Origin: an uncultured Bacteroidales bacterium
GTDB lineage: Bacteria; Bacteroidota; Bacteroidia; Bacteroidales; Bacteroidaceae
DNA: 64,000 nt
Direction of reading: 5' to 3'
NCBI GenBank assembly: GCA_902796835.1
Contig: CADBQP010000027.1
Span: forward strand, 29,712 to 93,711
Of this stretch, positions 3,442 to 30,741 are shown one piece after another (position 1 is the stretch's first letter; each line of letters begins with the position of its first letter). The notes under the pieces are model-generated. The model had not been told where the DNA came from and ran no database searches. It worked only from the letters and a program-made list of their open reading frames with translations. The position numbers and the translations under genes are program-made.

Positions 3442-3481
3442 AAAAACACCGCTGCCATGCAAGCATTTCTTGGGGCAGCGG
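3442..3481 (-). terminator. Probable intrinsic terminator closing the nucleotide-biosynthesis run
   Basis: CCGCTGCC...GGCAGCGG stem (inner CAAG/CTTG) followed by TGTTTTT on minus strand. Confidence 0.6.
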
Positions 3482-3609
3482 CGGACGATTATTGTCATTA
3501 TTTGCAATAGGCTCGATTATGCTCTATTAAACTTTTCCCCGAAAGGGGCTGCTTAGCGTTGTGCTCAGTGGCCCTCTTTCGAGATTTTTGTGCTTTCATC
3601 TCAAAATAA

Positions 3610-3685
3610 TATCTCCGAGATAATCCAAATTAGCTCGGAGATAATTTAAACTGTTGAGCCAACTCTTTAAACTGTCGAGCCAACT
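3610..3685. repeat. 21-bp-period intergenic repeat array, copy 1 (4 units)
   Basis: TATCTCCGAGATA-ATCCAAAT-TAGCTCGGAGATA-ATTTAAAC-TGTTGAGCCAACT-CTTTAAAC-TGTCGAGCCAACT. Confidence 0.85.
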
Positions 3686-3696
3686 ATGTGTAGATA

Positions 3697-4323
3697 TTAC
3701 TTTGGTAATTGGAAGAAGCGATAGAGATTACAGCCGACGAAATTGCCGAGAACAATGGAGAGATAATAAAAAGTAAGAGGTAGGAGGAAAGAGATTATCG
3801 TATCCATGGGTGTATTGAGCAGGTAGACGCAAGCATAAAAGGCGTCGGCGATACAGTGTGGAAAGCCACAAAGGATAAACGCTGGCACTGCAAAAAGAAG
3901 AGGCAACCAGTCTGAGAAATCTCTATTACGTCGCGCAAAATCTACGGCAAACGACATTAACAAGCCACATCCGATAGCGAGTAATCCTGTTCCGAGCCAT
4001 CCTATGCCTAATCGCGCCACAATTATACCTGTTGCCGCTTCGGGTAAGGCCAAAGGCGAGTAAAGGGATACGGCAGCTACAGCGAGCGTGCCAAGGATAT
4101 TACCGAGCAAAATGAGCAATAGCGGCAGGACATCCTTCCATCCGGTTATGAAGCCTGCTGTGCCAGTGTAGAGTTTAGCACGGTATTTAACTACGGCAAC
4201 TAAGCCGACGCAGAACAAGAACATGCCGAGGGCTGAATTGGCCAAAAACCCCCATCCAGCTACTGCGATGAGGATGCCAGAGAATAGCGATTGCGTTAAA
4301 ATTGGTAATTTTTGACTGGTCAT
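3697..4323 (-). CDS. Formate/nitrite transporter (FNT) family protein, short form
   Basis: 208 aa, ~6 hydrophobic helices; FNT-like motifs SGILI, LYTG, GNILG, CGLLM, GFPHCIAD; ATG at 4323 chosen. Confidence 0.75.
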   Translation of the reverse strand: MTSQKLPILTQSLFSGILIAVAGWGFLANSALGMFLFCVGLVAVVKYRAKLYTGTAGFITGWKDVLPLLLILLGNILGTLAVAAVSLYSPLALPEAATGIIVARLGIGWLGTGLLAIGCGLLMSFAVDFARRNRDFSDWLPLLFAVPAFILCGFPHCIADAFYACVYLLNTPMDTIISFLLPLTFYYLSIVLGNFVGCNLYRFFQLPK

Positions 4324-4420
4324 TGGTGATTGTTTGCAATTTCGTTTGATTTGACTCTTATTTTTTATTTCAAGCTGAAAGCATAGGGTAGTCGAAAGAA
4401 ATGAACTATTTGCATCTGGC

Positions 4421-5851
4421 TTATAGTGTATGAGAGGAGGAGCCATCGAAGCAATGAGTGCAGACATGATTGTGCGGCAATCCGATAGCACGTATAAGTG
4501 TTTCCAGTTTGGTGAAACGGAGTGAATGTAGTCCGAATTTCTCAGCGATACAATCCACCATTCGCTTATATTCTGGTGAATCGGTGATGGTATAGGCGTG
4601 TACTCGCTCTTCGTTCATCGCAGCTTCCTCGCCTTCTAATTCCGCAATGACGCGTCGGGTGATAAGTTCCATCACGGATTTTGATTCCGAGAAATTGATG
4701 AAGGGACATGCATAAACGAGTGGCGGACTAGCAATTCGCATGTGAATTTCTTTGGCTCCTCCCTCGAGCAGGCACCGTGTGTTGTCGCGCAACTGTGTTC
4801 CGCGCACAATAGAGTCATCACAAAGGAGTACACGACGATTCTGTATGATGGTGTTATTCTGTATGAGTTTCATCTTCGCCACCAGATTTCGCATATTCTG
4901 GCTCGAAGGCATAAAAGAACGAGCCCACGTCGTTGTATATTTAGTCACAGCTCGCCTATATGGCACGTTGTGGCCTTCAGAATATCCGATAGCCATGCCT
5001 ATGCCGGAGTCGGGCACACCGCAGCAGCAATCAACCTGCATATCATCTTCCTTTCCCATTTCGAAGCCTATATTATTGCGAACATCCTCCACATTACGAC
5101 CTTCGAAAACAGAGGTGGGAAAACCGTAGTACACCCATAAGAAAGAACAAATCTGCATGTGGTCGGGCAATGGTTCTGCCAGCTTTTCCATGCGATTGTC
5201 ATGCAACCGAACAATTTCGCCTGGTCCGAGGTTATGAACGAGGGTATAACCTAAGTTATAGAAAGCCGATGGCTCGCTTGCAGCACAGAAAGCACCTTCT
5301 TTTTGGCCAATGACGACCGGTGTACGTCCCCATAAGTCGCGCGCACACACCACTCCATTCTCTGTAAGCAGCATGAGGGACAGCGAACCTTTTATTTGCT
5401 CTTGCGCATAGCGAATACCTTCCTCGAGCGACGGTTTCTGAATAATCATCAATCCCACCAATTCCGTCGGGTTGACCTTTCCAGAAGAGAACTCGGAGAG
5501 GTGCATGTTGTGCTCAAGCGCTTGTTTCGCCAATTCTTCGAAATTGTTAATTTTACCTATGGTAATCAGTGCGAAGCGACCATGACGGGAATTGAACAAG
5601 AGGGGCTGCGCATCTGTATCGGAGATAATGCCTATTCCCGCATTACCGATAAACTTAGGCAGTTCTTCCTCCATTTTCGAACGGAACGAAGCCTTTGATA
5701 TAGAGTGTATTGAACGGTTGAAATGGCCTGTCGTCTCATCATATGTAGCCATTCCACCTCTGCGTGTACCCAGATGCGAAAGATAATCGGTACCATAGAA
5801 GACATCCGTCACACAAGGATATATACTGATAGCTCCAAAAAATCCAGCCAT
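4421..5851 (-). CDS. purF: Amidophosphoribosyltransferase-like protein lacking Cys1
   Basis: GVPDSG, PRPP loop DDSIVRGT, Fe-S cysteines (CSFLW, YACPF, CTHC); N-terminus MAGFFG. Confidence 0.88.
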   Translation of the reverse strand: MAGFFGAISIYPCVTDVFYGTDYLSHLGTRRGGMATYDETTGHFNRSIHSISKASFRSKMEEELPKFIGNAGIGIISDTDAQPLLFNSRHGRFALITIGKINNFEELAKQALEHNMHLSEFSSGKVNPTELVGLMIIQKPSLEEGIRYAQEQIKGSLSLMLLTENGVVCARDLWGRTPVVIGQKEGAFCAASEPSAFYNLGYTLVHNLGPGEIVRLHDNRMEKLAEPLPDHMQICSFLWVYYGFPTSVFEGRNVEDVRNNIGFEMGKEDDMQVDCCCGVPDSGIGMAIGYSEGHNVPYRRAVTKYTTTWARSFMPSSQNMRNLVAKMKLIQNNTIIQNRRVLLCDDSIVRGTQLRDNTRCLLEGGAKEIHMRIASPPLVYACPFINFSESKSVMELITRRVIAELEGEEAAMNEERVHAYTITDSPEYKRMVDCIAEKFGLHSLRFTKLETLIRAIGLPHNHVCTHCFDGSSSHTL

Positions 5852-5852
5852 A

Positions 5853-6818
5853 TTATTGATGTTTAACGGATGAATGATTAGTGAGGTAGGCGCAGATATT
5901 TGTTTCGATACGCTTGGCCAAGTCGGTCGTCTGCTCTTTAACGAACTTATCACCCGTTATACCTTCGTAGAGTTCGACATAGCGGTCAGTGATGGAGCCG
6001 ACAATCGCCTGAGTCATTTCCGGAACTTGCTGTCCGGCCTTGCCTTGGAAACCATTTTCCATGAGCCATTCGCGCACAAACTCCTTGGATAACTGACGTT
6101 GTGGCTTACCTGCTGCAAAACGCTCTGCGTAGTCTTCTGCATAGAAATAACGGCTGGAATCTGGTGTATGAACTTCATCCATGAGCATGACTTGGCCTTT
6201 ATAATTACCAAATTCATATTTAGTATCGACGAGCAAGAGTCCCTGTCTTTGTGCAATCTCCTGACCACGTTCAAAAAGCGCCAAGGCATATTTCTCCAAC
6301 AAGGCATATTCTTTCTCAGGCACCAGTCCACGCGCTATAATCTCTTCGCGAGATATATCCTCGTCGTGCGTTCCAATTTCTGCTTTGGTGGTTGGCGTGA
6401 TGATGGGTGTGGGGAATTTTTCGTTTTCTCTCATGCCTTCAGGCAGTTTCACACCACAGATTTCTCTGACACCAGCCTTGTAGGCACGCCAAGCGGAGCC
6501 ACACAAATAACCGCGAACAATCATCTCCACCGGATAGCCTTCGCAACGATAGCCTACCGAAACCATTGGATCGGGTGTGGCCAGCAGCCAGTTGGGCACT
6601 ATATCCCGTGTGGCATTGAGGAACTTGGCAGCTATCTGGTTGAGGATTTGTCCTTTGTAAGGAATTCCTTGTGGCAACACAACATCAAAAGCAGAGATGC
6701 GGTCGGTGGCCACTATGCATAGCAGGTCCTCCCCTATAAAATAGACATCACGCACCTTCCCGTGATACACATTGGTTTGTCCTGGAAATGAAAATTCGGT
6801 TGACGTTAAAGCATTCAT
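5853..6818 (-). CDS. purC: SAICAR synthetase (long Bacteroidetes type)
   Basis: [37 protein letters not shown]. Confidence 0.96.
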
Positions 6819-6848
6819 TTTTATTGCGTAAAAAAAAGGGTTTAGAAT

Positions 6849-9800
6849 TTATTTGTATTCACTCCATTCGCGGATGGCGAGCGAGTTGATAGGCACATCG
6901 AGGAAGGCATTAATAAAGGCTTCCGCCAATCGTGCATTAGTAATCAAGGGTATGTTGAGGTCCACAGCTGTTCGCCGCATGCGGTAATAGCTGTCGTGCA
7001 CAGAGTCTGCCAGCGTATCCACAGGGATTCCCACAAAAAGCTCAATCTCCTTATTATGCATCAAGTTTGAAACTATTGGTTGCTTCAGTCGGCCGTGCTC
7101 GTCTAAATGTTCGTTCTTGTAAACCCGTATGTTCGCCACTCCGAGGCCATTAAGGTAGTCGCTTGTTCCTCCGGTAGCATAGATGGTATATCCCCGATCC
7201 ACAAGTCGTTTAATTGTATCCAGCAAATGCGCCCTTTGTTTCGGTCCGCCAATAGCAAAGAGTATTTTTTTCTTTGGGATACGCATACCCACGGCCAACA
7301 TAGATTGTAGCAGCGCAGAGTTGGCATCTTCTCCCAGGCATCCCACCTCGCCTGTCGAAGCCATGTCCACACCTAGCACGGGGTCGGCATTTTGCAAGCG
7401 GTTGAATGAGAATTGCGATGCCTTCACACCCACATAGTCGAAATCGAAGAGCGACTTATTTGGCCTTTCGATAGGCAGGTCAAGCATGACACGTGTAGCA
7501 ATGTCGATAAAGTTGATTTTGAGTACCTTGCTCACAAACGGGAAGGAGCGCGAAGCTCGAAGGTTACACTCGATAACCTTAATTTCGTTCTCTCTTGCCA
7601 GATACTGAATGTTGAACGGACCGGATATGTTTAGTTCGCGAGCTATCTGACCCGAAATGCGCTTGATGCGGCGCACTGTCTCGACATACAGTCTCTGCGC
7701 TGGGAACATGATTGTTGCATCGCCAGAATGGACACCGGCATATTCCACATGCTCAGAGATGGCATAGGCTATAATTTCTCCGTTGCGAGCCACTGCATCC
7801 ATTTCCACTTCCTTGGTGTTGGTCATAAACTTTGAGATGACTACCGGATGTTCCTTTGAAACCTTGGCTGCCAACCGTAAGAACTTATGCAATTGCTCCT
7901 CGTTGGAACACACATTCATTGCTGCACCCGAAAGTACATAGGACGGACGAACAAGCACGGGATAACCCACACGCGCTACAAATTTCTCCATGTCTTCCTC
8001 AGAGGTCAGTGCGCTCCACTCGGGTTGATCCACGCCTATCCGGTCGAGCATGGCCGAGAATTTGTCGCGATCTTCCGCATTGTCTATTGATTTTGCCGAA
8101 GTGCCCAGGATTTTTACCTGCTGACCATCCAGCTTCATAGCCAAATTATTGGGTATCTGCCCTCCGGTCGAAACGATGACACCATGCGGATTTTCAAGCT
8201 CAATGATATCCATCACACGCTCAAACGTGAGCTCATCGAAATAGAGACGATCGCATGTGTCATAGTCCGTCGAAACCGTTTCTGGGTTAAAGTTTATCAT
8301 CACAGAGCGGTATCCGTTGTGACGAATGGTATTGAGTGCCTGCACTCCACACCAGTCAAACTCCACAGACGAACCAATACGATAGGCTCCAGAGCCCAAC
8401 ACGATAATCGACTTATGGTCGCCCGTATATTGAACGTCATTTTTTATGCCGCTATACGTGAGATATAGATAATTCGTTTGAGCAGGGAACTCTCCCGCCA
8501 ACGTGTCTATTTGTTTCACCACAGGCACTATGCCCATTCTCTTGCGCACTTGCCGCATGCGTAACACGGCCTGGTCCATTGTCATCGTTCGCCCCAGTCC
8601 CACAGCACGAGCAATCTGGAAGTCCGAAAATCCCAGTTGTTTGGCACGTAGCAGAAGGTCATATTCCAAGTGTTCCACACCATCCGTTCTTTTCAGTTCG
8701 GCATCGAGCTCGATAATATGCTCCAGGCGTTGCAAGAACCATCTATCAATCTTCGTCAGCTCGTGAATGCGGTCCACAGTGTAGCCCTCATACATGGCCT
8801 GCGCAATGGCAAAGATGCGTTTGTCGGTAGGTGCCTTCAGGGCTTCATCCAAATCATCCACGTGCAATTCTTTGTTCTCAGCAAATCCGTGCATGCCCTG
8901 TCCTATCATGCGCAAGCCCTTTTGAAGAGCATCCTCAAAGGTGCGGCCAATGGCCATCACCTCACCCACTGACTTCATGGAGCTGCCCAATTCGCGATTC
9001 ACACCGCGAAACTTGCCCAAGTCCCAACGCGGAATTTTGCAAACCACATAGTCCAACGCTGGTTCAAAAAAGGCCGACGTACTCTGCGTCACAGAGTTGG
9101 TCAGTTCAAATAGTCCGTAGCCTAAACCCAATTTAGTAGCCACAAAGGCCAGCGGATAGCCCGTAGCCTTCGACGCCAATGCCGAGGAACGACTCAGTCG
9201 CGCATTTACCTCGATTACGCGGTAGTCTTCCGACCCCGTGTCGAAAGCATACTGCACATTGCATTCACCCACAATACCCAAATGGCGGATGATGCGAATG
9301 GCCAGGGCACGTAGTTTGTGATATTCCGAATTGGTTAGCGTTTGTGAGGGTGCAATTACAATCGATTCGCCTGTATGAATGCCTAAGGGGTCAAAATTTT
9401 CCATGTTGCACACAGTGATGCAGTTGTCGTATCGGTCGCGCACCACCTCAAACTCAATTTCTTTCCAGCCCTTCAGCGATTTTTCCACCAACACTTGTGG
9501 TGAAAAAGAGAAGGCCTTCTCCACCATAGCGTCTAATTCTTGTTCGTTGTCGCAAAATCCAGAGCCCAGGCCACCCAGGGCATAAGCTGCACGAATAATA
9601 ACAGGATAGCCCAATTGTTTGGCAGCGTTTCGCGCATCCTCGACCGTTTCCACGGCCTCGCTCTTGATGGTCTTCACGCCTATCTTTTCCAGCTGACGCA
9701 CAAAGAGCTCACGGTCCTCAGTATTGATGATCGTCTCTACCGAAGTGCCCAGCACCCTTACGCCATACTTTTCCAACACTCCCCGGCGATACAATTCTAC

Positions 9801-10094
9801 GCCACAATTCAGTGCCGTCTGCCCGCCAAAGGCTAATAGAATACCGTCGGGCCGCTCCTTAGCAATGAGACGTTCCACAAACTCGGGCGTAACGGGCAAA
9901 AAGTAAATATGGTCAGCCATTCCTTCCGACGTTTGCACGGTGGCAATATTCGGATTTATCAGCACTGTTTCTATGCCCTCCTCGCGCAGGGCTTTAAGCG
10001 CTTGCGAACCCGAATAGTCAAACTCGCCAGCCTCGCCAATTTTCAGCGCACCCGAGCCAAGCACCAATACTTTGTTTATGTTTTCCAATCTCAT
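6849..10094 (-). CDS. carB: Carbamoyl-phosphate synthase large subunit
   Basis: GSGALKIGEAGEFDYSGSQA, duplicated ATP-grasp domains, C-terminal MGS domain; 1081 aa. Confidence 0.98.
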   Translation of the reverse strand: MRLENINKVLVLGSGALKIGEAGEFDYSGSQALKALREEGIETVLINPNIATVQTSEGMADHIYFLPVTPEFVERLIAKERPDGILLAFGGQTALNCGVELYRRGVLEKYGVRVLGTSVETIINTEDRELFVRQLEKIGVKTIKSEAVETVEDARNAAKQLGYPVIIRAAYALGGLGSGFCDNEQELDAMVEKAFSFSPQVLVEKSLKGWKEIEFEVVRDRYDNCITVCNMENFDPLGIHTGESIVIAPSQTLTNSEYHKLRALAIRIIRHLGIVGECNVQYAFDTGSEDYRVIEVNARLSRSSALASKATGYPLAFVATKLGLGYGLFELTNSVTQSTSAFFEPALDYVVCKIPRWDLGKFRGVNRELGSSMKSVGEVMAIGRTFEDALQKGLRMIGQGMHGFAENKELHVDDLDEALKAPTDKRIFAIAQAMYEGYTVDRIHELTKIDRWFLQRLEHIIELDAELKRTDGVEHLEYDLLLRAKQLGFSDFQIARAVGLGRTMTMDQAVLRMRQVRKRMGIVPVVKQIDTLAGEFPAQTNYLYLTYSGIKNDVQYTGDHKSIIVLGSGAYRIGSSVEFDWCGVQALNTIRHNGYRSVMINFNPETVSTDYDTCDRLYFDELTFERVMDIIELENPHGVIVSTGGQIPNNLAMKLDGQQVKILGTSAKSIDNAEDRDKFSAMLDRIGVDQPEWSALTSEEDMEKFVARVGYPVLVRPSYVLSGAAMNVCSNEEQLHKFLRLAAKVSKEHPVVISKFMTNTKEVEMDAVARNGEIIAYAISEHVEYAGVHSGDATIMFPAQRLYVETVRRIKRISGQIARELNISGPFNIQYLARENEIKVIECNLRASRSFPFVSKVLKINFIDIATRVMLDLPIERPNKSLFDFDYVGVKASQFSFNRLQNADPVLGVDMASTGEVGCLGEDANSALLQSMLAVGMRIPKKKILFAIGGPKQRAHLLDTIKRLVDRGYTIYATGGTSDYLNGLGVANIRVYKNEHLDEHGRLKQPIVSNLMHNKEIELFVGIPVDTLADSVHDSYYRMRRTAVDLNIPLITNARLAEAFINAFLDVPINSLAIREWSEYK

Positions 10095-10108
10095 GTGTAG
10101 TCAATAAT

Positions 10109-11182
10109 TTATTGATTAAGAAGCTTTACGAAATCATCAAACAGGAACTCCGTGTCCACTGGCCCCGAGCAAGCCTCGGGGTGGAACTGTACGGAAAACC
10201 AGGGTTTCGAAACGTGACGGATACCCTCATTAGAGCCGTCGTTCATGTTTTCGAAGAGAGGCATCCAGCCTTCAGGCAGTGTGTCCGCATCCAGAGCATA
10301 GCCATGGTTTTGCGAAGTAATGAAGCAACGATTCTCGCCCACCAAGCGCACGGGTTGATTGTGCGATCTGTGGCCGTATGGCAGTTTATAGATGGCAGCG
10401 CCAGCTGCTTTGCCCAGCAGCTGATTGCCCATGCATATACCAAAGATCGGTTTGCCCGTTTGCATATAGTTTCTGATATGGTGCACCAGTGGCATGCAGT
10501 TGTCGGGATTGCCCGGACCATTGGAGAGGAACAGACCATCGGCGTCGATCTGTCCAAATTCATAATCCCATGGCACACGCACTACCTCTAAACCCCTGTC
10601 TATAAGGCAGCGAATAATATTGTGTTTTACACCGCAGTCAACAAGCACTACCTTTTTGGCACCGCCCACATTATATCGCATAACCTCCTTGCACGACACT
10701 TGCGCCACGAAGTTCACATCCTCATAACGCGACTGCTCAGCATGCTCACACCCCTCTATCTCGATAGAACCCATCATCACGCCATGCTCACGCAGCAACA
10801 TCGCTAAAGCGCGGGTGTCAACACCAGTAATTCCAGGTATACCTTCGCGTTTAAGCCACTGCGCGAGTGATTCATGAGCATTCCAATGACTGAATTTTCC
10901 ACTGTATTCACAGCAAATGATGGCGCGTGCATAAATGCGTTCGGACTCCATGTAGGTTGCCAAACCATCTGAACGGAAAGTCAACTCAGGAACTCCATAG
11001 TTGCCTACCAGCGGAAAAGTAAGGGTCATCAACTGCCCTGCATAACTGGGGTCTGTGAGTGACTCGGGATAACCCACCATGGCCGTATTGAAGACCACCT
11101 CTCCGCTCACGGACACGTCTGCTCCGAAACTATAACCTTCAAAGGTCGTTCCGTCGCTTAGTCGCAACATTGCTTTTTTCAT
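10109..11182 (-). CDS. carA: Carbamoyl-phosphate synthase small subunit
   Basis: GEVVFNT, FGICMGNQ (catalytic Cys), QFHPE; ATG at 11182 overlaps the purA stop (alternative start 11191). Confidence 0.97.
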   Translation of the reverse strand: MKKAMLRLSDGTTFEGYSFGADVSVSGEVVFNTAMVGYPESLTDPSYAGQLMTLTFPLVGNYGVPELTFRSDGLATYMESERIYARAIICCEYSGKFSHWNAHESLAQWLKREGIPGITGVDTRALAMLLREHGVMMGSIEIEGCEHAEQSRYEDVNFVAQVSCKEVMRYNVGGAKKVVLVDCGVKHNIIRCLIDRGLEVVRVPWDYEFGQIDADGLFLSNGPGNPDNCMPLVHHIRNYMQTGKPIFGICMGNQLLGKAAGAAIYKLPYGHRSHNQPVRLVGENRCFITSQNHGYALDADTLPEGWMPLFENMNDGSNEGIRHVSKPWFSVQFHPEACSGPVDTEFLFDDFVKLLNQ

Positions 11183-12477
11183 TTTCTCCATATTGTTGCA
11201 TTGCGATCAGGCCCAACCGAAATAATTTTGATGGGTGTGGCCAATTCGCGTTCCAAAAAATTAACATAATTCACAAAAGCTTCTGGCAAATCTTCCTGTT
11301 TGTCACAATGCGTCAAATCGGTTTGCCAACCTGGCAGCTCTTGGTAAACAGGTTCTACATCCTTATCAATCGAGAATGGAAAATCATATATCTGTTCTCC
11401 TTTGATACGATAAGCGACACAGGCCTTGACAACTGGGAAAGTATCAAGCACGTCAGATTTCATCATAATCAGTTGGGTCACACCATTGAGCATAATCGTA
11501 TATCGAAGAGCCACAAGATCAATCCATCCACAGCGACGCTCACGTCCCGTGACTGCACCATATTCATGACCTATATCGCGCATTTTCTTACCCGTCTCGT
11601 CGAACAATTCTGTCGGGAAAGGTCCAGACCCCACACGGGTGCAGTAAGCCTTGAAAATCCCATAAACTTCGCCAATACGGCTTGGAGCTAAACCAAGGCC
11701 AGTACATGCCCCTGCACTTATTGTATTACTTGAAGTGACAAAAGGATATGAACCAAAATCAACATCCAACAGTGAACCTTGGGCGCCTTCGCAAAGAATG
11801 GTTCGGTTATCGGCTAACGCTTTATTGACATAATGCTCGCTATCAACGAAACGGAACTGACGCAGAAAATCAATGGCCAGCATCCATTCTTTCTCGAGAG
11901 CCTCCAGTCCGTCTAACGAAATAGTTGTTCCCCCTTTCGACACGGCCGATGCATTGAGCGAATTCATCATTTCTATATGCCGGTAACGCGCTTGAGCATA
12001 TTTCTCAGCGAAGTTTTCGAATATATCTCCTACGCGCAGGCCATTGCGACTGATTTTATCTGTGTATGTCGGGCCTATACCTTTTCCAGTGGTGCCAATC
12101 TTCGCCATTCCTTTGGCTACTTCGTTGGCTTGGTCCAGAAGACGATGGGTAGGAAGGATGAGTTGCGCTTTTTTAGAAATAATCAAACGTTCCTTTAAGT
12201 TGTGACCAGATTGAGCCAATTCCTCGGCTTCTTTTTGGAACAAAATAGGATCTAATACAACCCCATTTCCTATCAGATTCACTTTCCCGCCTTGAAATAT
12301 ACCGGAGGGGATACTACGAAGCACATATTTCTGACCTTCGAACTCGAGGGTATGGCCTGCATTTGGGCCTCCCTGAAAACGTGCTACAACATCGTACTTA
12401 GGGGTCAAGACATCGACCATTTTACCTTTGCCCTCGTCTCCCCACTGGAGTCCTAAAAGGATATCTGCTTTTTTCAT
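11179..12477 (-). CDS. purA: Adenylosuccinate synthetase
   Basis: GLQWGDEGKGK, GGPNAGHT, TGRERRCGW. Confidence 0.98.
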   Translation of the reverse strand: MKKADILLGLQWGDEGKGKMVDVLTPKYDVVARFQGGPNAGHTLEFEGQKYVLRSIPSGIFQGGKVNLIGNGVVLDPILFQKEAEELAQSGHNLKERLIISKKAQLILPTHRLLDQANEVAKGMAKIGTTGKGIGPTYTDKISRNGLRVGDIFENFAEKYAQARYRHIEMMNSLNASAVSKGGTTISLDGLEALEKEWMLAIDFLRQFRFVDSEHYVNKALADNRTILCEGAQGSLLDVDFGSYPFVTSSNTISAGACTGLGLAPSRIGEVYGIFKAYCTRVGSGPFPTELFDETGKKMRDIGHEYGAVTGRERRCGWIDLVALRYTIMLNGVTQLIMMKSDVLDTFPVVKACVAYRIKGEQIYDFPFSIDKDVEPVYQELPGWQTDLTHCDKQEDLPEAFVNYVNFLERELATPIKIISVGPDRNATIWRK

Positions 12478-13766
12478 ATTCCTAATTGATTAAATATATA
12501 ATCAACATTCTTCATATAATAATCGAGCGTGAAACAGTTATCTACCTCTTCAGAAGAAAGATATTGCATCACTTCGGGTGTGTCTTTGAGGAGTTCCTGC
12601 ATTTGGATTCTTTCCATCAGCGTGCGCATAGCTACTGGTTGAACAAGGTCATATGCCTGTTCGCGAACTAAACCTTTTTCTATGAGCGCATTCATTACAC
12701 GTTGGGCAAAAATGGCTCCGTATGTGAGTCCAATATTATGCAACATGTTCTCTGGATAAACCACCAGATTATCCAACACGTTCATCAGTCGAACCAGCAT
12801 ATAATCAAGCAATATGGTGGCATCGGGAAGCACGATTCTCTCAGTAGAGGAATGTGAAATGTCTCGTTCATGCCACAAAGCGATATTTTCTACAGAGGTA
12901 CACATGTATCCTCGCATCACACGAGCACAGCCACATATATTTTCAGAAGAAATTGGATTACGCTTATGCGGCATGGCAGACGACCCTTTTTGCCCCTTGC
13001 GGAAAGCCTCCTCCACTTCTCTAACTTCCTGACGTTGCATGTTACGAATCTCCATCGCAATCTGCTCCAAAGAACCTGCAATAACAGCCAAGGAAGATAA
13101 ATAAAAAGCATGACGGTCGCGTCCAAGCACCTGCGTGGCTATCTTGGCCGATTCGATGCCAAGATGCTCACAAACATATTGCTGGATGAAAGGAGGAATG
13201 TTTGCATAGTTTCCTACCGCTCCAGATAGTTTTCCGGCTTCTACGCCCGATGCTGCCATCTCGAATCGCTCCATGTTACGCTGCATCGCAGAAAACCATA
13301 ATGCCCACTTAAGTCCAAATGAAGTCACGTCAGCATGCATGCCATGCGTGCGACCAATGACAGGAGTGTATTTGAACTCATTGGCGCGCTTCTTCAAAAC
13401 GGTCGAAAATTTCTGCAAGTCGTCACGCAGAATGGTGTTGGCCTGTTTTAGCAGATACCCATTTGCTGTGTCTACCACATCGGTAGAAGTTAGTCCATAA
13501 TGCACCCACTTACGCTCCTCACCGAGCGACTCGCTGACTGTACGCGTAAAGGCCACCACATCATGGCGAGTGATTTCCTCAATCTCGTGTATGCGATCGA
13601 CATCGAAGGTGGCATTTGCACGCAATTTTGCAACATCTTCCTTGGGCACTACACCTAATTCTGACCAAGCCTCGGCAGCTAAAAGTTCTACCTCCAAATA
13701 GGCTTGAAACTTATTTTCCTCCGTCCATATTTTGCGCATTTCTGCGCGTGAATAGCGTTCTATCAT
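12474..13766 (-). CDS. purB: Adenylosuccinate lyase (430-aa Bacillus-like type)
   Basis: MIERYSRAEM, GSSAMPHKRNP, LWHERDISHSS. Confidence 0.97.
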   Translation of the reverse strand: MIERYSRAEMRKIWTEENKFQAYLEVELLAAEAWSELGVVPKEDVAKLRANATFDVDRIHEIEEITRHDVVAFTRTVSESLGEERKWVHYGLTSTDVVDTANGYLLKQANTILRDDLQKFSTVLKKRANEFKYTPVIGRTHGMHADVTSFGLKWALWFSAMQRNMERFEMAASGVEAGKLSGAVGNYANIPPFIQQYVCEHLGIESAKIATQVLGRDRHAFYLSSLAVIAGSLEQIAMEIRNMQRQEVREVEEAFRKGQKGSSAMPHKRNPISSENICGCARVMRGYMCTSVENIALWHERDISHSSTERIVLPDATILLDYMLVRLMNVLDNLVVYPENMLHNIGLTYGAIFAQRVMNALIEKGLVREQAYDLVQPVAMRTLMERIQMQELLKDTPEVMQYLSSEEVDNCFTLDYYMKNVDYIFNQLGI

Positions 13767-13767
13767 T

Positions 13768-14949: not shown

Positions 14950-14982
14950 TTTATTATATTTTTAGGGTGAAATTAATTTCTT

Positions 14983-19693: not shown

Positions 19694-19704
19694 GAATAAA
19701 GATT

Positions 19705-22700: not shown

Positions 22701-23427
22701 CGATATCGGACTTTATGAACGAATCTTCTACCTCGATTTGCTCTAAAATTGTGGTGAAGGTGGTGTGACGACAATGGTCTGACCAATACGTATCGAGAAT
22801 GCGAAGTTCGGTTTCGGTGGGGTCGCGACGCTCTTGACGGAAATAATCTGCCACACACTTCAAGTCGTCGGCATTCATTGCCAATCCCCATTGCTGGCAG
22901 AAGGCTTCATATTCCTCGGGCGGCATTGAGGTGAAACCATGCAGCGACGCTAAGGGCTTCGCTTCGGCCGCTGGCTGACGCTCCAGGAGCTGAAGGTTCT
23001 TTTCTCTCGATTCGACCGAGTTGATGTAGTAATGACGAATGCGCTCGAGCTCGTCCGCCGTCATCTCGTCCTCGAAAATCAGCAAACGACTGGAACGGAT
23101 GTCTATGTCCGCATTCGGGTCGATGAGATGCACGCAATCGATAGCCGACGAAGCGCGTTGGTCGAACTGACCGGGAATGTATTCGACAGCCAGATAATTC
23201 TTGTCCTTCAAATCCATTCTGTCGTACACGACGTCGGTTACCGTTTCGCCAAACACGCCATACTTGCTCTTCGCTAACAACTCCTCGCTAAAGCCAAAGA
23301 GGTCGTACACACACAGATAGCGCATCTTGCTTATGTGCATCTGCAAATTCTCATTCAATTCCTGGCGCAAGCTCTCGGCTTCGACACGGAAACCTTCTTT
23401 CTTTTCGACAAATAGCCTTATATCCAT
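19705..23427 (-). CDS. purL: FGAM synthase, single-chain large type with fused glutaminase
   Basis: [43 protein letters not shown]; 1240 aa. Confidence 0.97.
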
Positions 23428-23428
23428 C

Positions 23429-23896
23429 TCAAATAACTGTTGTTAAAACTTTTTGTGTTTGCCGGCGACGAAATTCGATGTATTTTTCGCGCAATGACTT
23501 ATCTTGTAAAGCCAGGATGCTCACCGCCAATAGTGCCGCATTCGTTGCACCATCGATGGCCACCGTTGCTACTGGAACGCCGCTTGGCATCTGCACCATC
23601 GATAGCAAACTGTCGAGGCCATCTAAAGTCTTTGAACGTACAGGCACTCCAATGACAGGGAGCTGTGTCAAACCGGCTATCACACCGGCCAGATGGGCAG
23701 CGCCCCCTGCTCCGGCAATGATGACGCTCAATCCGCGAGCTTCGCTCGATTCCGCCCATTCCATTAATGCATGTGCTGCACGATGAGCAGAAATCACGCG
23801 TTTCTCAACTTCAATACCAAATGATTCAAGGGTATCAATCGCAGCTTGCATTACTGGCAGGTCGCTGGCCGAACCCATAATAACTCCTACTTTCAT
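23429..23896 (-). CDS. purE: N5-CAIR mutase (class I-type PurE)
   Basis: [39 protein letters not shown]. Confidence 0.95.
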
Positions 23897-23897
23897 G

Positions 23898-25424
23898 TTA
23901 TTCCCATTCAATGGTAGAGGGTGGTTTTGACGAAATGTCATAACATACTCGATTCACACCTTTTACCTTGTTAATAATTTCATTGCTTATTTTCGCCAAT
24001 ACCTCATAGGGTATGTGTGCCCAATCGGCTGTCATTGCATCGCTCGAAGTCACAGCACGCAAGGCAATCGGATTCTCATATGTACGTTCATCGCCCATCA
24101 CGCCTACCGACCGCACTTCGCTCAACAATATCGCACCTGCTTGCCATATTTCGTCGTAGAGCCCCGCTTCGCGCAGAGCATTTATATAAATGGCATCGGC
24201 CTCTTGGAGGATACGTATCTTTTCGCGTGTGATATCACCCAGGATACGAACTGCCAAACCTGGCCCGGGGAAGGGATGCCGGGCGATCAGATGCTCGGGC
24301 ATGCCCAGACTACGGCCCACACGGCGCACCTCGTCTTTGAACAGCCACTTAATCGGTTCGCACAGCTGCAAGTGCATCTCCCTGGGCAGACCTCCCACGT
24401 TATGATGGCTCTTAATAACCTTTCCAGTTATATTGAGACTCTCTATGCGATCGGGATAGATTGTTCCTTGTGCCAGCCATTTGGCATCAGTGATCTTCTT
24501 CGCTTCGGCATTGAACACTTCCACGAAATCGCGACCAATAATCTTACGTTTTTGCTCTGGCTCCTTGACTCCTTCCAAATCGTTCAAAAACTTTTCGCTG
24601 GCATCCACACCGATTACATTCAGCCCCAGTCCTTCGTAATCGTGCATTACATTGTTGAACTCATTTTTACGCAGCATTCCGTGGTCCACGAAGATGCAGG
24701 TGAGCTGACTGCCTATGGCCCGGTTCAAAAGCGCGGCCACCACAGATGAGTCGACACCGCCGGACAGGCCTAAAATGACACGATCGCGACCGATTTGCTC
24801 GCGCAACTCCGCTACCGTGGTCTCTACAAACTTTTCGGGGCTCCATTCCTGGCGTGAACCGCAGACATCGACTACGAAATTCCTCAGCAACAACGTTCCT
24901 TGCAGGGTATGAAACACTTCCGGGTGGAATTGGGTGCCAAAGACGGGTTGCGACTCGGGAATGTAATAGGCTGCATTTGCCACCGTCTCGGTAGAAGCGG
25001 CGAGGATTGCTCCTCGGGGTAGCTTCGTGATGCTGTCGCCGTGCGACATCCACACTTGCGAGCGTTCGTCGAATCCTTTGAATAGCGGACAGGTATAATC
25101 TACATTTTGCAACTGCTGGCGGCCATATTCACGGGTTCCGGCATTTTCTACTTTCCCGCCATAACTATGGCTGATTAATTGCGCACCGTAGCAGATGCCG
25201 AGAATGGGGAAACGACCCCGAATTCGGTTCAAATCGATATGAAACGCATCGGCCTGATAGACACTTAGCGGCGAACCACTCAGGATTACTCCGATAACAT
25301 CCTTGTCGTCGTCGGGAAACTTGTTATACGGGAAAATCTCACAGAACGTGTTCAGCTCGCGCACACGGCGGCCTATGAGTTGTGTGGTTTGGCTGCCAAA
25401 ATCCAAAATAATGATTTTCTGCAT
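23898..25424 (-). CDS. guaA: GMP synthase (glutamine-hydrolysing)
   Basis: [39 protein letters not shown]. Confidence 0.98.
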
Positions 25425-25435
25425 GCGGGTGTTTC

Positions 25436-26899
25436 TTATTGTTGTGAATAATTAGGCGCTTCGGAAGTGATGGTGATATCGTGGGGGTGGCTTTCAAACA
25501 TTCCGGCAGAAGTGATGCGCACGAATTTTGCCCGGCGCAGTTCCGCTAAGTCGTGTGCTCCCACATATCCCATTCCCGAGCGCAGACCGCCCATCAGTTG
25601 ATGAATCGTTTCGCAAATACTTCCCTTGTACGGCACGCGCCCTGTTATTCCCTCTGGCACCAACTTCGACACATTGCTTTCGCCGCCCTGGAAATAACGA
25701 TCGGCACTGCCGGCTTTCATTGCTTCGATGCTTCCCATGCCACGATAAGACTTGAACTTACGGCCATTGAAGATTATCGTATCGCCCGGTGCCTCGTCGG
25801 TTCCGGCAAACATTGAACCGCACATCACACAATTACCTCCGGCAGCCAGGGCCTTAACCACATCGCCAGAATAGCGCAGGCCTCCATCAGCAATCAGCGG
25901 CACATCAGTTCCCTTCAATACTTCTGCAACTTCGAAAATTGCACTTAGCTGCGGCACCCCCACTCCAGCAATGATACGAGTTGTACAAATACTGCCAGGA
26001 CCTATTCCCACCTTGATTCCATCGGCACCATGCTCTAATAGATATTTGGCAGCCTCTGCCGTTGCGATATTGCCAACTACTACATCCAAATCAGGATACT
26101 TTGCTTTAATAGCGCATAACGCATTAATGATGTTCCGACTGTGACCATGTGCCGAATCCAGCACGACGGCATCTACGTGCTCTTTCACCAAAGCATCCAC
26201 ACGGTCCATATAATCAGGCGTGATGCCCACTCCAGCTGCACAACGCAAATGGCCTTTCGCATCTTTATTGGCATTCGGATAGTCGCGCAGTTTGGTAATA
26301 TCTTTATACGTCACAAGGCCAATCAGTTTGTTATTGCTATCCACCACTGGCAACTTTTCAACTTTATTGGTCTGAAGTGCCTTCGTGATGGTTTGATTAT
26401 CCGTAGAAGTGATAGTTATCAAATTCTCGTTCGTCATCACTTCTTCTATAGGCCGATTCATATTCGTTTCAAAACGTAAATCCCGATTGGTTACAATACC
26501 TACCAACACATGCTGGTCGTCAACCACCGGAATACCTCCGATATGATTGTCATGCATCAACTGAAGCGCATCGCCTATCGTTTGATACCCATATATAGTC
26601 ACAGGGTCGGCTATCATACCATTTTCTGCACGCTTCACTCTGCGCACCTGCGCCGCTTGTTCGCTGATAGACATGTTTTTATGAATAACACCGATGCCAC
26701 CCTCTCGAGCAATAGCTATCGCCATGGTAGCCTCGGTCACTGTATCCATCGCGGCACTTACCAAAGGTATGTTGAGCGGTATGTGACGGGAAAACTGCCC
26801 ATGCAGGCATACTTCACGAGGTAGCACCTCGCTATAAGCGGGAACTAACAATACATCATCGAAGGTTAATCCTTCATTCATTATTCGGTCTTGATACAT
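25436..26899 (-). CDS. guaB: IMP dehydrogenase with CBS pair
   Basis: [25 protein letters not shown]. Confidence 0.98.
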
Positions 26900-26917
26900 A
26901 TCAGTAGGTTATTTTGT

Positions 26918-27973
26918 TTACAACATATGGTCGCAATAAAAGCAACGTTTGATACCATCGCCATCGAAGTAGCATTTCTGCTCTACGGGTTCTGTCGTCG
27001 CGATGCAACGATCATTATGGCATGGCATATCACTCGTTTGCACATGCCGATCAGAAGGTTCGGCTTGCAAATAATCATTGCTCAGCAGAGTATAGATAAT
27101 CGCTTTGCGCACAAACTTTCCGTTCTCTACTTGACGAAAATAAGCGGCTCGTAAATCATTGTCCACACCCACCGTAATTTCATTCACGCGTGGCAATGGA
27201 TGCAACACTATCATGGAGGGTTTTCCCATCGACATCAGTCGCTCATCCAAGATGAACGAGTCTTTCAGACGTTCGTATTCATCCGTGTCTGCAAAACGTT
27301 CTTGCTGCACACGTGTCATATAAAGGACATCTACTACTGGCATAGCTTCTTCCAATGTCTTCACTTCCGTATATGCCGAACCCAACTCGGCCTTCATATA
27401 GTCGGGCAGAGCCAGTTCCTGCGGGGCAATAAGCACAAAATGCACTCCCTCATAACGTCGCATAGCCTTGATGAGCGAATGAACGGTACGACCGTACTTG
27501 AGGTCGCCACACAAACCGATTGTCAGATGGTCGAAACGTCCCAATTCACGGCGGATAGTCAGCATGTCGGTCATAGTCTGTGTAGGGTGACTATGCCCAC
27601 CGTCGCCAGCGTTTATCACTGGAATACGACTAAACTCACTTGCCACACGCGGAGCTCCTTCTTTATAATGACGCATTGCAATGATGTCTGCGAAAGCACT
27701 CACCACACGTACTGTATCGGCCACCGTCTCGCCTTTGCTCACAGAAGAGGAACGTGCATCACTGAAACCCAACACCTGTCCTCCCAGTTCCATCATCGCA
27801 GCTGTAAAACTCAAGCGAGTTCGAGTGCTCGGCTCATAGAACAACGTCGCCAGTTTCTTTCCTTTGCATGCCTCGGCATACTGCCCAGGATGAGCAATGA
27901 TATCCAATGCACGCAAAACGATTTTCTCAATCTCCTGAGTTGTCAGGTCTGTCGAGTCTAATAGATGTCTCAT
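26918..27973 (-). CDS. pyrB: Aspartate carbamoyltransferase catalytic chain with C-terminal PyrI-like Zn-finger
   Basis: FYEPSTRTRLSF, HPTQT, GDLKYGRTVHSL, TRVQQER, HPLPR; tail CHNDRC...CFYC. Confidence 0.95.
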   Translation of the reverse strand: MRHLLDSTDLTTQEIEKIVLRALDIIAHPGQYAEACKGKKLATLFYEPSTRTRLSFTAAMMELGGQVLGFSDARSSSVSKGETVADTVRVVSAFADIIAMRHYKEGAPRVASEFSRIPVINAGDGGHSHPTQTMTDMLTIRRELGRFDHLTIGLCGDLKYGRTVHSLIKAMRRYEGVHFVLIAPQELALPDYMKAELGSAYTEVKTLEEAMPVVDVLYMTRVQQERFADTDEYERLKDSFILDERLMSMGKPSMIVLHPLPRVNEITVGVDNDLRAAYFRQVENGKFVRKAIIYTLLSNDYLQAEPSDRHVQTSDMPCHNDRCIATTEPVEQKCYFDGDGIKRCFYCDHML

Positions 27974-28002
27974 ATGTTATTTCTAAATTTCTTCTAACAT
28001 CA

Positions 28003-28698
28003 TCATGCAAACTCTTCTACACATCGTAGATAAGCCGCTACTGGGTCTGCTGCAGCCGTAATTGGACGACCCACTACAATAAAATCGCTTCCTATCTCTT
28101 TGGCACGGGAAGGAGTGGTAATGCGCACTTGGTCGTCCACCCGGCTGTCTGCAAAACGAATACCTGGCGTTACCGTCAAAAATGCTTTGCCACAATGCTT
28201 TTTAACCATTCCTGCTTCTAATGGCGAACAAACAACTCCATCCAGACCTGCCTCCTGAGCCATCTGAGCATAATGACAGACACAGTCTCTTATACTACCA
28301 TTAATAAGTAGCTCCTCATGCATACGCATCTCACTGGTGGACGTCAGTTGCGTAACTGCCAACAGAATTGGCCGTGTTCCGTCTTCTCGCGTCAAACCCT
28401 GCAATGCCGCTTCCATCATCGCTTTTGTACCAGCTGCATGCAGGTTGACCATATCGATATCCAAACTCGACAACACGGCCATCGCTTTCTGCACGGTATT
28501 CGGAATGTCGTGTAACTTTAAATCCAGAAAAATCTTATGCCCACGACGATGAATCTCGCGAACGATACTCGGTCCTTCAGCATAAAAGAGTTCCATTCCG
28601 ATCTTCACAAACGGCTTCTCCTCTGCAAAACGATCCAGAAACGCATACGTTTCCTTCGCACTTGCAAAATCACATGCTATAATCACATTGCTATTCAT
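28003..28698 (-). CDS. pyrF: Orotidine-5'-phosphate decarboxylase (~230-aa type)
   Basis: IIACD, VKIG, DLKLHDIPNTV, VTPGIR, VVGRPI. Confidence 0.96.
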   Translation of the reverse strand: MNSNVIIACDFASAKETYAFLDRFAEEKPFVKIGMELFYAEGPSIVREIHRRGHKIFLDLKLHDIPNTVQKAMAVLSSLDIDMVNLHAAGTKAMMEAALQGLTREDGTRPILLAVTQLTSTSEMRMHEELLINGSIRDCVCHYAQMAQEAGLDGVVCSPLEAGMVKKHCGKAFLTVTPGIRFADSRVDDQVRITTPSRAKEIGSDFIVVGRPITAAADPVAAYLRCVEEFA

Positions 28699-29605
28699 TG
28701 TTCACTATTCCTATAATATCTTCTAAATGCTCAATCTTCAATTCTTTCATCGCCCGTGGCAATGCTTCTATTATCGTCTGACAGGCTTTCGGATTTCGCA
28801 AACCAGCAGCGCCAATCTCTACGGCACTCGCTCCAGCCATCATCATTTCTATCACATCTTCTTCACTACTCACACCGCCGCATCCTATGATAGGTGTTCC
28901 AGGACATGCTTTGCTCACTTGGTTCACCATTCGAAGGGCAATGGGGAGCACTCCAGGTCCTGAATAGCCACCGTAACGATTTGCCAACACCGGTTTCCTA
29001 TGACGGATGTCTATTCGCATACCTAAAACGGTATTTATTAAACATAAGCCGTCGGCACCAGCATCTACACAGGCACGCGCAATGGAGGTTATATCTGTCA
29101 CATTCGGGCTTAACTTCATAAATACAGGTTTCCTCGTCGCCGCTTTCACCGCACCCGTCACTTCGGCTGCAGCTTCAGGAGAAGTGCCAAAAGCCATACC
29201 ACCGTTATGCACGTTCGGGCAAGAGATATTCACTTCTAGTATTGTTGCGTCTGTCTCCTTATCTATGCGTTCACACACGTAGGCATACTCTTCTATACTA
29301 AATCCGCTCACATTTGCGATAATCGGACCGTCGTAGAGACGGCGCAACTCAGGAATTTCATGTCGGACTACTTCCTCCACACCTGGATTCTGCAAACCTA
29401 CTGCATTCAGCATTCCCGTTGCTCCGCATTCAGCAATACGCGGACGTGCATTTCCCTGGCGCGCCTCGCGCGTTGTCCCTTTGATGGAAATAGCGCCTAA
29501 AATATTAAGGTCCATCCATTCACTCATTTCCACGCCGAAACCACACGTACCACTCGCCGGTATCACGGGATTCTTTAAAATAATATCTTTAAGTCGTACC
29601 TTCAT
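28691..29605 (-). CDS. pyrD: Dihydroorotate dehydrogenase family 1B catalytic subunit
   Basis: ASGTCG, NAVGLQNPG, NISCPNV, KLSPN, GCGGV; ATG overlaps the pyrK stop. Confidence 0.95.
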   Translation of the reverse strand: MKVRLKDIILKNPVIPASGTCGFGVEMSEWMDLNILGAISIKGTTREARQGNARPRIAECGATGMLNAVGLQNPGVEEVVRHEIPELRRLYDGPIIANVSGFSIEEYAYVCERIDKETDATILEVNISCPNVHNGGMAFGTSPEAAAEVTGAVKAATRKPVFMKLSPNVTDITSIARACVDAGADGLCLINTVLGMRIDIRHRKPVLANRYGGYSGPGVLPIALRMVNQVSKACPGTPIIGCGGVSSEEDVIEMMMAGASAVEIGAAGLRNPKACQTIIEALPRAMKELKIEHLEDIIGIVNNE

Positions 29606-30336
29606 CAAACATTCAACATTAAACATTCAACGTCAAACACAGGTCCTTCCTTACACACTCGTTTCATACCGTTTTTCGTTTCAATACTGCATCCGACGCA
29701 GATACCTACTCCGCAACCCATACGTTCCTCCATGCTCATCTGCCCGTTCGTGCCTATGGTTTGCACTATAGCTCGGAGCATCGGCATCGGACCACACGCA
29801 AAATAATAAGGAGCCGATTTCTTCAACACATCTGTCACTACGCCATGTTTACCGTAACTGCCATCTATCGTACAGACATCCACGCCGCAACCCAGATTCA
29901 AGAACATCTCCTCCGAAAACACCTCGCTTTTCGTGTTAAAACCTATCACTACGTGCACTCTCTTTCCACCTTCTCGCAACTTCTTTGCTAAGTATATCAG
30001 CGGCGGAACGCCAACTCCCCCACCAATCAACAACACTTCGTCCTCGGCCTTCGACATATCATAACCATTGCCCAAGCATGTCAGTAAATCCAGCTTCTCA
30101 TCTGGTCGCATCTGCGACATAATGACTGTTCCCTGTCCTACAGTCTTATAAATAAGCGTTAATCTATCACCATCCACATCACACACCGAAATCGGTCTGC
30201 GCAAGTAATGTCCCGGAACCAAAAGCTCAACAAACTGTCCGGGAACAATCCCACTCACGTCGCCTGTGAGTACCATCTTCCACACCCTCTCTGCGATGCG
30301 CTCATTTGACAACAAATGCCATTTATTCTGCTTCAT
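29605..30336 (-). CDS. pyrK: Dihydroorotate dehydrogenase electron-transfer subunit
   Basis: PGQFV, LRRPISV, GGGVGVPP, ACGP, MGCGVGICVGC...CKEGPVF (2Fe-2S). Confidence 0.95.
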   Translation of the reverse strand: MKQNKWHLLSNERIAERVWKMVLTGDVSGIVPGQFVELLVPGHYLRRPISVCDVDGDRLTLIYKTVGQGTVIMSQMRPDEKLDLLTCLGNGYDMSKAEDEVLLIGGGVGVPPLIYLAKKLREGGKRVHVVIGFNTKSEVFSEEMFLNLGCGVDVCTIDGSYGKHGVVTDVLKKSAPYYFACGPMPMLRAIVQTIGTNGQMSMEERMGCGVGICVGCSIETKNGMKRVCKEGPVFDVECLMLNV

Positions 30337-30679
30337 ACACTATGGGGCCTTTGTATTTATTCTTAAGAAAACTCAGAACAAAAGCGCTCATCTCCTTATA
30401 AACGAGTTCACCCTCGCCTTTTAGGCAGAGGGTGATACTTACGGACGGACGGGCGCCAATATGGTTGTCACATGTGAAATTTGCTGTTTTTGCCGCGAGA
30501 TGATCCAGATAATTTGGTGTGGGAGGGACATTCGGCATTGTAAAGACATTACCATCCCCTGCACGCTTGGCCGCAAGGCTACCAGAGCAGGTCGTCCCCT
30601 GATAAGCGAAACCCACCTGACGGATATGCACATGCAAATCCACTGGAGCAGGTTTTCGTATTTGGCCAAACAGTCTCAT
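30323..30679 (-). pseudogene. pyrC: Truncated, diverged dihydroorotase (PyrC N-terminal fragment) with intact 118-codon ORF
   Basis: DLHVHIRQVGFAY...G...AA.RAG...V.TMPN...P.P matches the DHOase DxHxHxREPG...GG...MPN pattern; ~300 aa missing. Confidence 0.75.
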
Positions 30680-30733
30680 ATCGATTTCTCACGTTTATAC
30701 TTCCGTTAGGGAAGCAGTATCAAAAATCACCTG

Positions 30734-30741
30734 CAAAGTTA
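30734..30741 (-). promoter_or_regulatory. -7 promoter element for the pyr/pur run
   Basis: TAACTTTG 54 nt upstream of the first ORF; weak -33 match. Confidence 0.65.

Follow-up and report, generated by a model that had tools for sequence, protein, structure and literature searches.

Long purine and pyrimidine operons are classic in Firmicutes, where those of the Bacillus subtilis type hold the purine genes in the order purEKBCSQLFMNHD and the pyrimidine genes in the order pyrR-P-B-C-AA-AB-K-D-F-E. The horizontal replacement of operons is likewise an established idea, and the selfish-operon model and xenologous gene displacement, in situ or of whole operons, are said to have been set out by Lawrence and Roth and by Omelchenko and colleagues. 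Here we describe a run of 21 minus-strand genes, about 27 kb long, for pyrimidine and purine synthesis in an uncultured rumen Bacteroidales bacterium. The window analysed is a stretch of 64,000 nt (GenBank assembly GCA_902796835.1, contig CADBQP010000027.1, positions 29,712 to 93,711) on contig C27 of a 2.02-Mb metagenome-assembled genome (MAG), which comprises 68 contigs and is 94% complete with 0.06% contamination. Like the B. subtilis pur and pyr operons, the run is a long single-strand biosynthetic operon with overlapping or very short junctions; as in the pyr operon, PyrK/PyrD is of class 1B and carAB-type genes stand beside pyr genes. Unlike these operons, it joins pyr, gua, pur, car and folD, differently ordered, into a single run of 21-23 genes, does without purK, purS, purQ, purN, pyrR and pyrP, uses purT instead, and has a Bacteroidetes-type promoter. 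Taken together, the evidence makes it probable that this is a real super-operon, imported as a block with the adjacent glnN gene, that native genes were then lost while redundant imported ones decayed, and that control lies with a promoter and a leader RNA.

All 21 open reading frames (ORFs) of the original prediction are present, from 30679 down to 3697, and its gene assignments are borne out by NCBIfam profiles, or by Pfam for the FNT-family channel. When start codons are chosen to agree with profile alignments (that of purE among them), 19 of the 20 junctions are overlaps or gaps of 1-33 nt and the purF-FNT gap measures 97 nt, so that the spacing first claimed, no gap above 33 nt but for one of 97 nt, is recovered by recomputation. 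Moreover, 11 species-level MAGs and 24 metagenome contigs show this gene order too, and because of this recurrence the arrangement is no chance product. The 11 MAGs come from a distribution scan with one genome per species and carry a purH 79-84% identical to the one described here. Their order from pyrB to carB or purC is the same across the fetched flank, and their records are labelled 'Paludibacteraceae bacterium' or 'uncultured Bacteroidales' and derive mostly from ruminant gut samples.

Three genomes that hold the operon (G164, G165 and G166, hereafter the holders) were analysed over its full length. They have in common the order pyrC-K-D-F-E-B-guaB-guaA-purE-L-M-H-D-folD-(purT)-purB-purA-carA-carB-purC-purF, with short junctions. 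All three encode a complete PyrC of 375-378 aa (TIGR00857, 327 bits against a cut-off of 279 bits) and, between pyrF and pyrB, a PyrE of 218 aa (TIGR00336, 135 bits against 106.8). The operon is modular within this clade: G164 has purN between purM and purH (L201, about 14265-14837) and lacks purT, an aspartate-aminotransferase-like gene separates purF from FNT in G165 (L203/L204, about 29421-30620 of the joined stretch), and FNT is a variable accessory gene with a homologue only in G165 among the three. About 60 further species, labelled 'Alistipes sp.', Rikenellaceae, Candidatus Cryptobacteroides or Candidatus Aphodosoma, possess sub-blocks only; many have the core purE-purL-purF-purM-purH-purD-folD(-purB), and in some pyrC-K-D-F is divergent from purE...folD-guaB-guaA. 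Since the sub-blocks stand alone in these species, the super-operon seems to be the final product of blocks fusing step by step. It would have arisen in an uncultured rumen or gut Bacteroidales clade, where it has 22-23 genes including full pyrC and pyrE.

Seven genomes from three other genera of the family that includes the present genome (G267, G287 and G366 of g38; G475, G487 and G535 of g39; G413 of g51) also carry a purH, 71-72% identical, of the type found in the MAGs labelled 'Alistipes', Rikenellaceae or Cryptobacteroides. Four of them (G267, G287, G366 and G413) also keep the 42-45% purH usual in the family, and these dual-purH genomes may represent further imports of a pur cluster, caught before native loss.

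In the genus of the present genome the operon is foreign in several respects. As had been supposed for relatives, congeners hold these genes dispersed, and in the complete congener G013 the operon homologues lie at 13 separate chromosomal places. A purH of this type occurs in one of the 148 genomes of the genus, with no match in the 147 others at E <= 1e-60; the other genomes have a split purH, that is, separate genes for an inosine monophosphate (IMP)-cyclohydrolase-like protein and an aminoimidazole carboxamide ribonucleotide (AICAR) formyltransferase. Furthermore, no purM or pyrF homologue was found in congeners at E <= 1e-15. Protein identities to the congeners G013 and G047 and to the holders G164-G166 separate the operon from the rest of the genome. 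RpoB, encoded on the same contig as the operon, is 87-88% identical to congeners versus 74-75% to holders, GyrB 86-89% versus 70-72%, and GyrA 76-80% versus 60-61%, whereas the 21 operon proteins are 26-76% identical to congeners versus 70-93% to holders. CarB (73% to congeners versus 91% to holders), GuaB (68-70% versus 91-93%), PurA (59-63% versus 86-88%) and PurL (26-28% versus 79-82%) illustrate this inversion, which applies to every operon gene.

The phylogenies point the same way. In the CarB tree the present genome (G000) lies within the holder clade (100/100) as sister to L042 (96/88), while 18 other CarB sequences of the genus group apart and a long-branched one, L149, falls outside them. 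In the RpoB tree it lies within its genus (100/100) as sister to G013 and G021 (100/100), and the holders form a clade of their own (100/100). Composition differs as well: the G+C content at third codon positions (GC3) is 0.50 in the island versus 0.65 in native genes of the same window, and the overall G+C content is 0.487 versus 0.530. The gene directly upstream of the operon, glnN, encodes a type III glutamine synthetase (30819-33017, minus strand; Pfam GSIII_N, Gln-synt_C and Gln-synt_C-ter) that is 83-85% identical to holders versus 58-62% to congeners. It has no second copy in the genome, and G166 has a glnN 7.4 kb upstream of pyrC; glnN thus appears to be of foreign origin too. The 21-gene block and glnN, about 30 kb together, are therefore best described, from sequence comparison, as a horizontally acquired island, which would have moved as one block into the ancestors of the present genome, members of another genus within a large Bacteroidales family.

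The island appears to have taken over the pathway. Searches of the assembly with the 21 proteins (tblastn) returned the genes themselves and one second folD on contig C21, 45% identical to the operon FolD, and a full-length pyrC and a pyrE lie on contigs C10 and C18. Because no second copies other than folD are present in the assembly, the block is no extra module; it constitutes the cell's de novo route, completed by the outside pyrC and pyrE. At least 12 native genes of congeners are absent, namely guaA, guaB, pyrK/D, pyrB, purE, the large purL, purD, purB, purA, carA, carB and purC. Native survivors of the pathway are limited to pyrC (51-53% identical to congeners versus 29% to holders), pyrE (64-67% versus 42-48%) and the second folD (62-64% versus 45-55%). 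G013 has an IMP-cyclohydrolase-like gene immediately upstream of mreB (L017); it has no counterpart here, where that position (42472-42806) holds only a spacer with a palindromic repeat, and the empty position marks the scar of a lost native purine gene. At the native carAB site, the genes that flank carAB in G013 fall on separate contigs (C53 and C37) in this assembly.

Loss has also touched the island itself. Its first ORF, pyrC' (30323-30679), is an internally deleted dihydroorotase remnant of 118 aa with weak NCBIfam dihydroorotase matches at the N-terminus only; it retains residues 1-93 of the holder PyrC and its final 14, is about 55% identical in the N-terminal part, and still overlaps the start codon of pyrK. 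The pyrF-pyrB spacer, the site of the deleted pyrE, measures 29 nt. In other strains of the species it is about 110 nt (L157, 11018-11128; L159), some 80 nt longer, and holds a recognisable PyrE relic (tblastn E about 5e-4). Since it is exactly pyrC and pyrE, the genes with surviving native copies, that have decayed, the island appears to be undergoing trimming in its new host. In the proposed sequence of events, the scattered native genes would have been lost after the transfer, while the island pyrC and pyrE, redundant with surviving natives, would have decayed. The original description of a self-contained module is thus right in that the block is transferable and moved as a unit, but its own pyrC is a remnant and its own pyrE is deleted.

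Upstream of the first gene lies the Bacteroidetes-type -7 promoter motif TAACTTTG (30734-30741, minus strand, read from the sequence), as predicted, and it is followed by a structured 5' leader (30677-30733, minus strand), a candidate cis-regulatory RNA. Between this genome and the holders, conservation is far higher over the roughly 100 nt upstream of pyrC than further out, and the promoter motif GTAnnTTTGCA is kept in G164-G166 and in those metagenome copies that extend far enough upstream. A pattern derived from the leader, with 20 nt fixed, matched 24 metagenome contigs; wherever the downstream sequence is long enough, the match lies directly before pyrC-K-D-F-(E)-B-guaBA-purE-L-M, and contig L208 ends 27 nt after it. 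The leader is roughly 50 nt long, and alignment of 23 distinct sequences fits one model, with an outer helix GAUUU/AAAUC and a 7-bp hairpin UGCUUCC-loop-GGAAGUA whose loops are mostly of the GNRA type. The internal-loop bases UUGAUAC and UAAACGU are invariant, and a few nt separate the 3' strand of the outer helix from the AUG of the first ORF. With two outer-helix pairs added to the model, 94.7% of cells are paired versus 42-49% with slid partners. Both bases have changed in four pairs; in the hairpin, for instance, C-G has become U-A, and the outer helix shows a switch from U-A to A-U. Covariation scores 0.137 versus 0.085 in shuffles (reached in 0 of 500), and RNAalifold independently recovers both helices.

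A covariance model (R1) scores 70.9 bits at 30733-30677, its sole match in 1.46 Mb made up of the window and further loci (pur clusters of MAGs labelled 'Alistipes', Rikenellaceae and Cryptobacteroides, native pyrC/pyrE loci and congener regions), and a motif search found no further copy in this genome. Expression would begin at the one conserved promoter and run through the leader, which is the likely single control point, as a metabolite-sensing, protein-binding or 5' stabilising element. Control from a single point, as originally proposed, is indeed plausible, with one conserved promoter and a structured leader before the first gene in every copy examined. Nothing points to the processive antitermination that had been suggested alongside it, for there is no match to the NusG/UpxY family and no known RNA element; the head of the operon has no NusG-paralogue gene by NCBIfam and Pfam, the first ORFs being pyrC' and pyrK, with glnN upstream.

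Several observations weigh against this interpretation. In the leader, 20 positions and three hairpin base pairs are conserved by construction of the search pattern; the variable top of the hairpin and the outer helix lie outside the fixed positions, and covariation among related sequences such as these is moderate evidence, not decisive. As to transcription, a single 27-kb mRNA is suggested by spacing and conservation, and starts inside the run are possible. The original statement that internal promoter motifs are lacking holds for the intergenic gaps, but seven further TAnnTTTG motifs lie on the minus strand within coding sequence, and the one at 14030 has a properly spaced TTTG 21 nt upstream. 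These motifs agree with an alternative that we consider possible, if rather unlikely, in which linkage aids co-transfer without forming a single transcription unit, internal promoters drive sub-operons (pyr, gua, pur and car), and the leader affects only the first genes. Indeed, the corresponding blocks are separate in related lineages (purE-L-F-M-H-D-folD-purB, pyrC-K-D-F, guaBA and carAB) and could retain promoters of their own. However, the motif density inside the run (0.29/kb versus 0.37/kb genome-wide) equals the background, and for that reason the count is uninformative on internal promoters. Furthermore, the junctions between blocks are as short as those within them (pyrB-guaB 18 nt, guaA-purE 1 nt, an overlap at purA-carA, carB-purC 30 nt), they are short in the holder genomes too, and simple terminator scans found consensus terminator-like sites inside the run no commoner than in shuffled sequence.

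At the downstream end, the hairpin and T-run first proposed as the terminator are present (3442-3481, minus strand), but another hairpin sits directly after FNT, where a REP-like palindromic repeat (3606-3676) forms a terminator-like 10-bp hairpin with a T-rich run at about 3650-3600. Some 120 nt (3482-3600) separate the two hairpins and contain a possible 33-codon ORF (MKAQKSRKRATEH...). A further palindrome of the same kind (33178-33238) separates glnN from the native GH20 gene; its arms are 28 nt long, and a T-run follows them. These two repeats near the island ends were considered as attachment (att) sites and rejected, since they are members of a dispersed family for which the genome has 117 core hits. 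The family is palindromic, with a 21-nt period and the core TCTCGGAGATAATTTAAA; in the window it has copies at 3606-3676, 33178-33238 and 42543-42592, it occurs on many contigs, and behind genes its copies often stand in tandem or form long hairpins with a T-run after them. Neither 334 kb of congener loci nor 102 kb of holder loci showed a copy, so the family may have expanded in this species.

Nucleotide similarity places the island borders between about 3317 and 3700, with similarity to congeners resuming at about 3317, and between about 33090 and 33180. Both flanks are native and partly syntenic with G013, one with GH20, SufB, IF-2, NusA and MreB, the other with tRNAs, tuf and rpoB; GH20 is 55% identical to the G013 gene in the syntenic region, and SufB is 86% identical to congeners versus 72-74% to holders. 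Three further points stand against the favoured interpretation. The two flanks are about 1 Mb apart in two complete congeners, and because of this a comparison of the tuf/tRNA and sufB-infB-nusA-mreB flanks found no clean empty site in either; no integrase or transposase was found, all 22 island ORFs being metabolic; and even the closest holder proteins in the sample reach only about 80-93% identity, which means either an unsampled donor or a transfer that is not recent.

Contig C27 could in principle be a chimera or binning artefact that joins a Paludibacteraceae-like operon to the backbone of this genus, for the genome is metagenome-assembled, and the tRNA and tuf genes next to the left junction are highly conserved and a breakpoint in several assemblies. 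This is very improbable, since it would require two crossovers, and exact-protein look-ups across independent samples and different assemblers recover both junctions. The right one (IF-2 - CvpA - SufB - GH20 - GlnN - 118-aa ORF - pyrK...) is found on contigs as long as 119 kb, and the left one (purF - FNT - tRNAs - tuf - secE - nusG - rplK...) in two assemblies, other contigs breaking at tRNA/tuf. Moreover, the nearly complete and clean bin lacks every native homologue of the congeners, so that without the island the organism would, unlike them, have no purine or pyrimidine genes, and the island pyrC and pyrE have decayed as expected if native copies are in the same cell. Vertical inheritance of a super-operon that the ancestor of the genus already had and that every other species of the genus has since dispersed or lost, which the sister relation of holder clade and genus in the CarB tree might suggest, is contradicted and hardly credible, given that the CarB described here is nested inside the holder clade instead of basal, that 147 of 147 other species lack this purH and have the split one, that island GC3 differs by 0.15 from native genes, and that the island proteins are nearer to the holders than RpoB is.

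Because the 3' strand of the leader's outer helix ends so close to the AUG, the leader could conceivably influence how translation of the first ORF is initiated, or else serve as a 5' stabilising hairpin or a protein-binding site. A search of the region 30560-30860 against Rfam (4227 families, Rfam 15) gave no match even at E <= 1, and the whole window at gathering threshold gave tRNAs only; neither a purine riboswitch nor a PyrR-binding RNA was detected by Rfam in the window or the leader region, and pyrR is absent from the run. A bolder proposal, which we regard as quite doubtful, is that the leader belongs to a new class of metabolite-sensing RNA that gates the whole 27-kb pur, pyr and gua polycistron, cassette and sensor together forming a portable prototrophy island. 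The signal would be PRPP (phosphoribosyl pyrophosphate), a pyrimidine or purine nucleotide, or an alarmone, and would open or close the helix beside the start codon. If so, a sensor-bearing 'nucleotide prototrophy' island would be spreading among rumen Bacteroidales and ousting native pathways.

The individual genes, all on the minus strand, fit a complete route that would lead from bicarbonate, glutamine, aspartate, glycine, formate and PRPP to uridine (UMP), adenosine (AMP) and guanosine (GMP) monophosphates, with the native pyrC and pyrE. Carbamoyl phosphate would be made by CarA (10109-11191; TIGR01368, 435 bits) and CarB (6849-10094; TIGR01369, 1536 bits). It would be converted to UMP by the aspartate carbamoyltransferase PyrB (26918-27973; TIGR00670, 326.9 bits), native PyrC, the class 1B dihydroorotate dehydrogenase PyrD (28691-29626; NF005574, 401.5 bits) with its electron-transfer subunit PyrK (29605-30336; NF000799, 214.7 bits), native PyrE and the orotidine monophosphate (OMP) decarboxylase PyrF (28003-28698; NF001273, 295 bits). 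The C-terminal tail of PyrB (residues 318-349, window 26918-27030) resembles the zinc domain of PyrI (Pfam PyrI_C, 21.8 bits, just below the cut-off); the PyrI nucleotide-binding domain is absent from it.

IMP would be formed by a PurF-like amidophosphoribosyltransferase (4421-5851; Pfam GATase_7, and TIGR01134 at 186 bits, below its 350-bit cut-off), PurD (15825-17075; TIGR00877, 482.7 bits), the formate-dependent glycinamide ribonucleotide (GAR) formyltransferase PurT (13768-14949; NF006766, 619.8 bits), a single-chain formylglycinamidine ribonucleotide (FGAM) synthase PurL of 1240 aa (19705-23427; TIGR01857, 1682.8 bits), PurM (18659-19693; TIGR00878, 446 bits), PurE (23429-23896; TIGR01162, 204.8 bits), PurC (5853-6818; NF009251, 480.9 bits), PurB (12474-13766; TIGR00928, 523 bits) and the bifunctional AICAR formyltransferase/IMP cyclohydrolase PurH (17077-18639; NF002049, 724.5 bits). 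The operon FolD (14983-15828; NF010776, 370.7 bits) would supply PurH with 10-formyl-tetrahydrofolate. AMP would then be made by PurA (11179-12477; NF002223, 549.6 bits) with PurB, and GMP by the IMP dehydrogenase GuaB (25436-26899; TIGR01302, 610 bits) and the GMP synthase GuaA (23898-25424; NF000848, 745 bits), and GlnN, encoded upstream, could provide glutamine for CarA, PurL and GuaA. The FNT channel of 208 aa (3697-4323; Pfam PF01226, 59.9 bits against a cut-off of 34.6) probably feeds imported formate to PurT.

Two steps may differ from the usual enzymology. The PurF-like protein, the only one of the genome, starts with MAGFFG, with Ala at the position of the nucleophile Cys of canonical PurF. 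As the PurF-like proteins of all three holders have the same N-terminus, this would be a family trait and not a lesion, and the enzyme may have an ammonia-dependent activity. No PurK homologue was found in the 94%-complete assembly by tblastn with PurT, a PurK relative; PurK may be dispensable owing to the high CO2 of the rumen. PurE carries an SAHR motif.

Among described regulatory RNAs, the leader is closest in form to the purine, ZTP (pfl), PRPP/ppGpp (ykkC subtype) and NMT1/xanthine leaders. Like them it is short and structured, has invariant internal-loop bases, lies directly upstream of a nucleotide-synthesis operon and places a helix strand next to the start codon. Unlike those riboswitch classes it has no match among the 4227 Rfam families, and it is equally a candidate for a protein site or a stabilising hairpin. 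It is a concrete candidate for the control of nucleotide synthesis in Bacteroidales, whose purine and pyrimidine regulation is poorly known. As for the original view of the locus as an undescribed system, the enzymes are those of the standard pathways throughout, but the architecture, the transfer and the leader are undescribed; a full-text literature search of limited coverage found no description of this operon. The new features are the fusion of pyr, gua, pur, car and folD in a single stretch of 21-23 genes, the passage of this unit from one Bacteroidales lineage to another with wholesale native loss, the ongoing trimming of redundant island genes, and the clade-specific structured leader.

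The locus offers an unusually clean natural case in which two core anabolic pathways, about 20 genes in one operon, moved between bacterial families. Such events are predicted by models of operon evolution and seldom seen for central metabolism. In gut and rumen communities, nucleotide prototrophy would thus be gainable or swappable in one step, which bears on auxotrophy predictions based on MAGs. As in the selfish-operon and xenologous displacement models, a functionally complete cluster moved as a unit and displaced the equivalent native genes. Unlike the usual cases of xenologous displacement, the exchange involved some 20 core anabolic genes of two pathways at once, took place between families of one order, and was followed by trimming of the redundant island genes.

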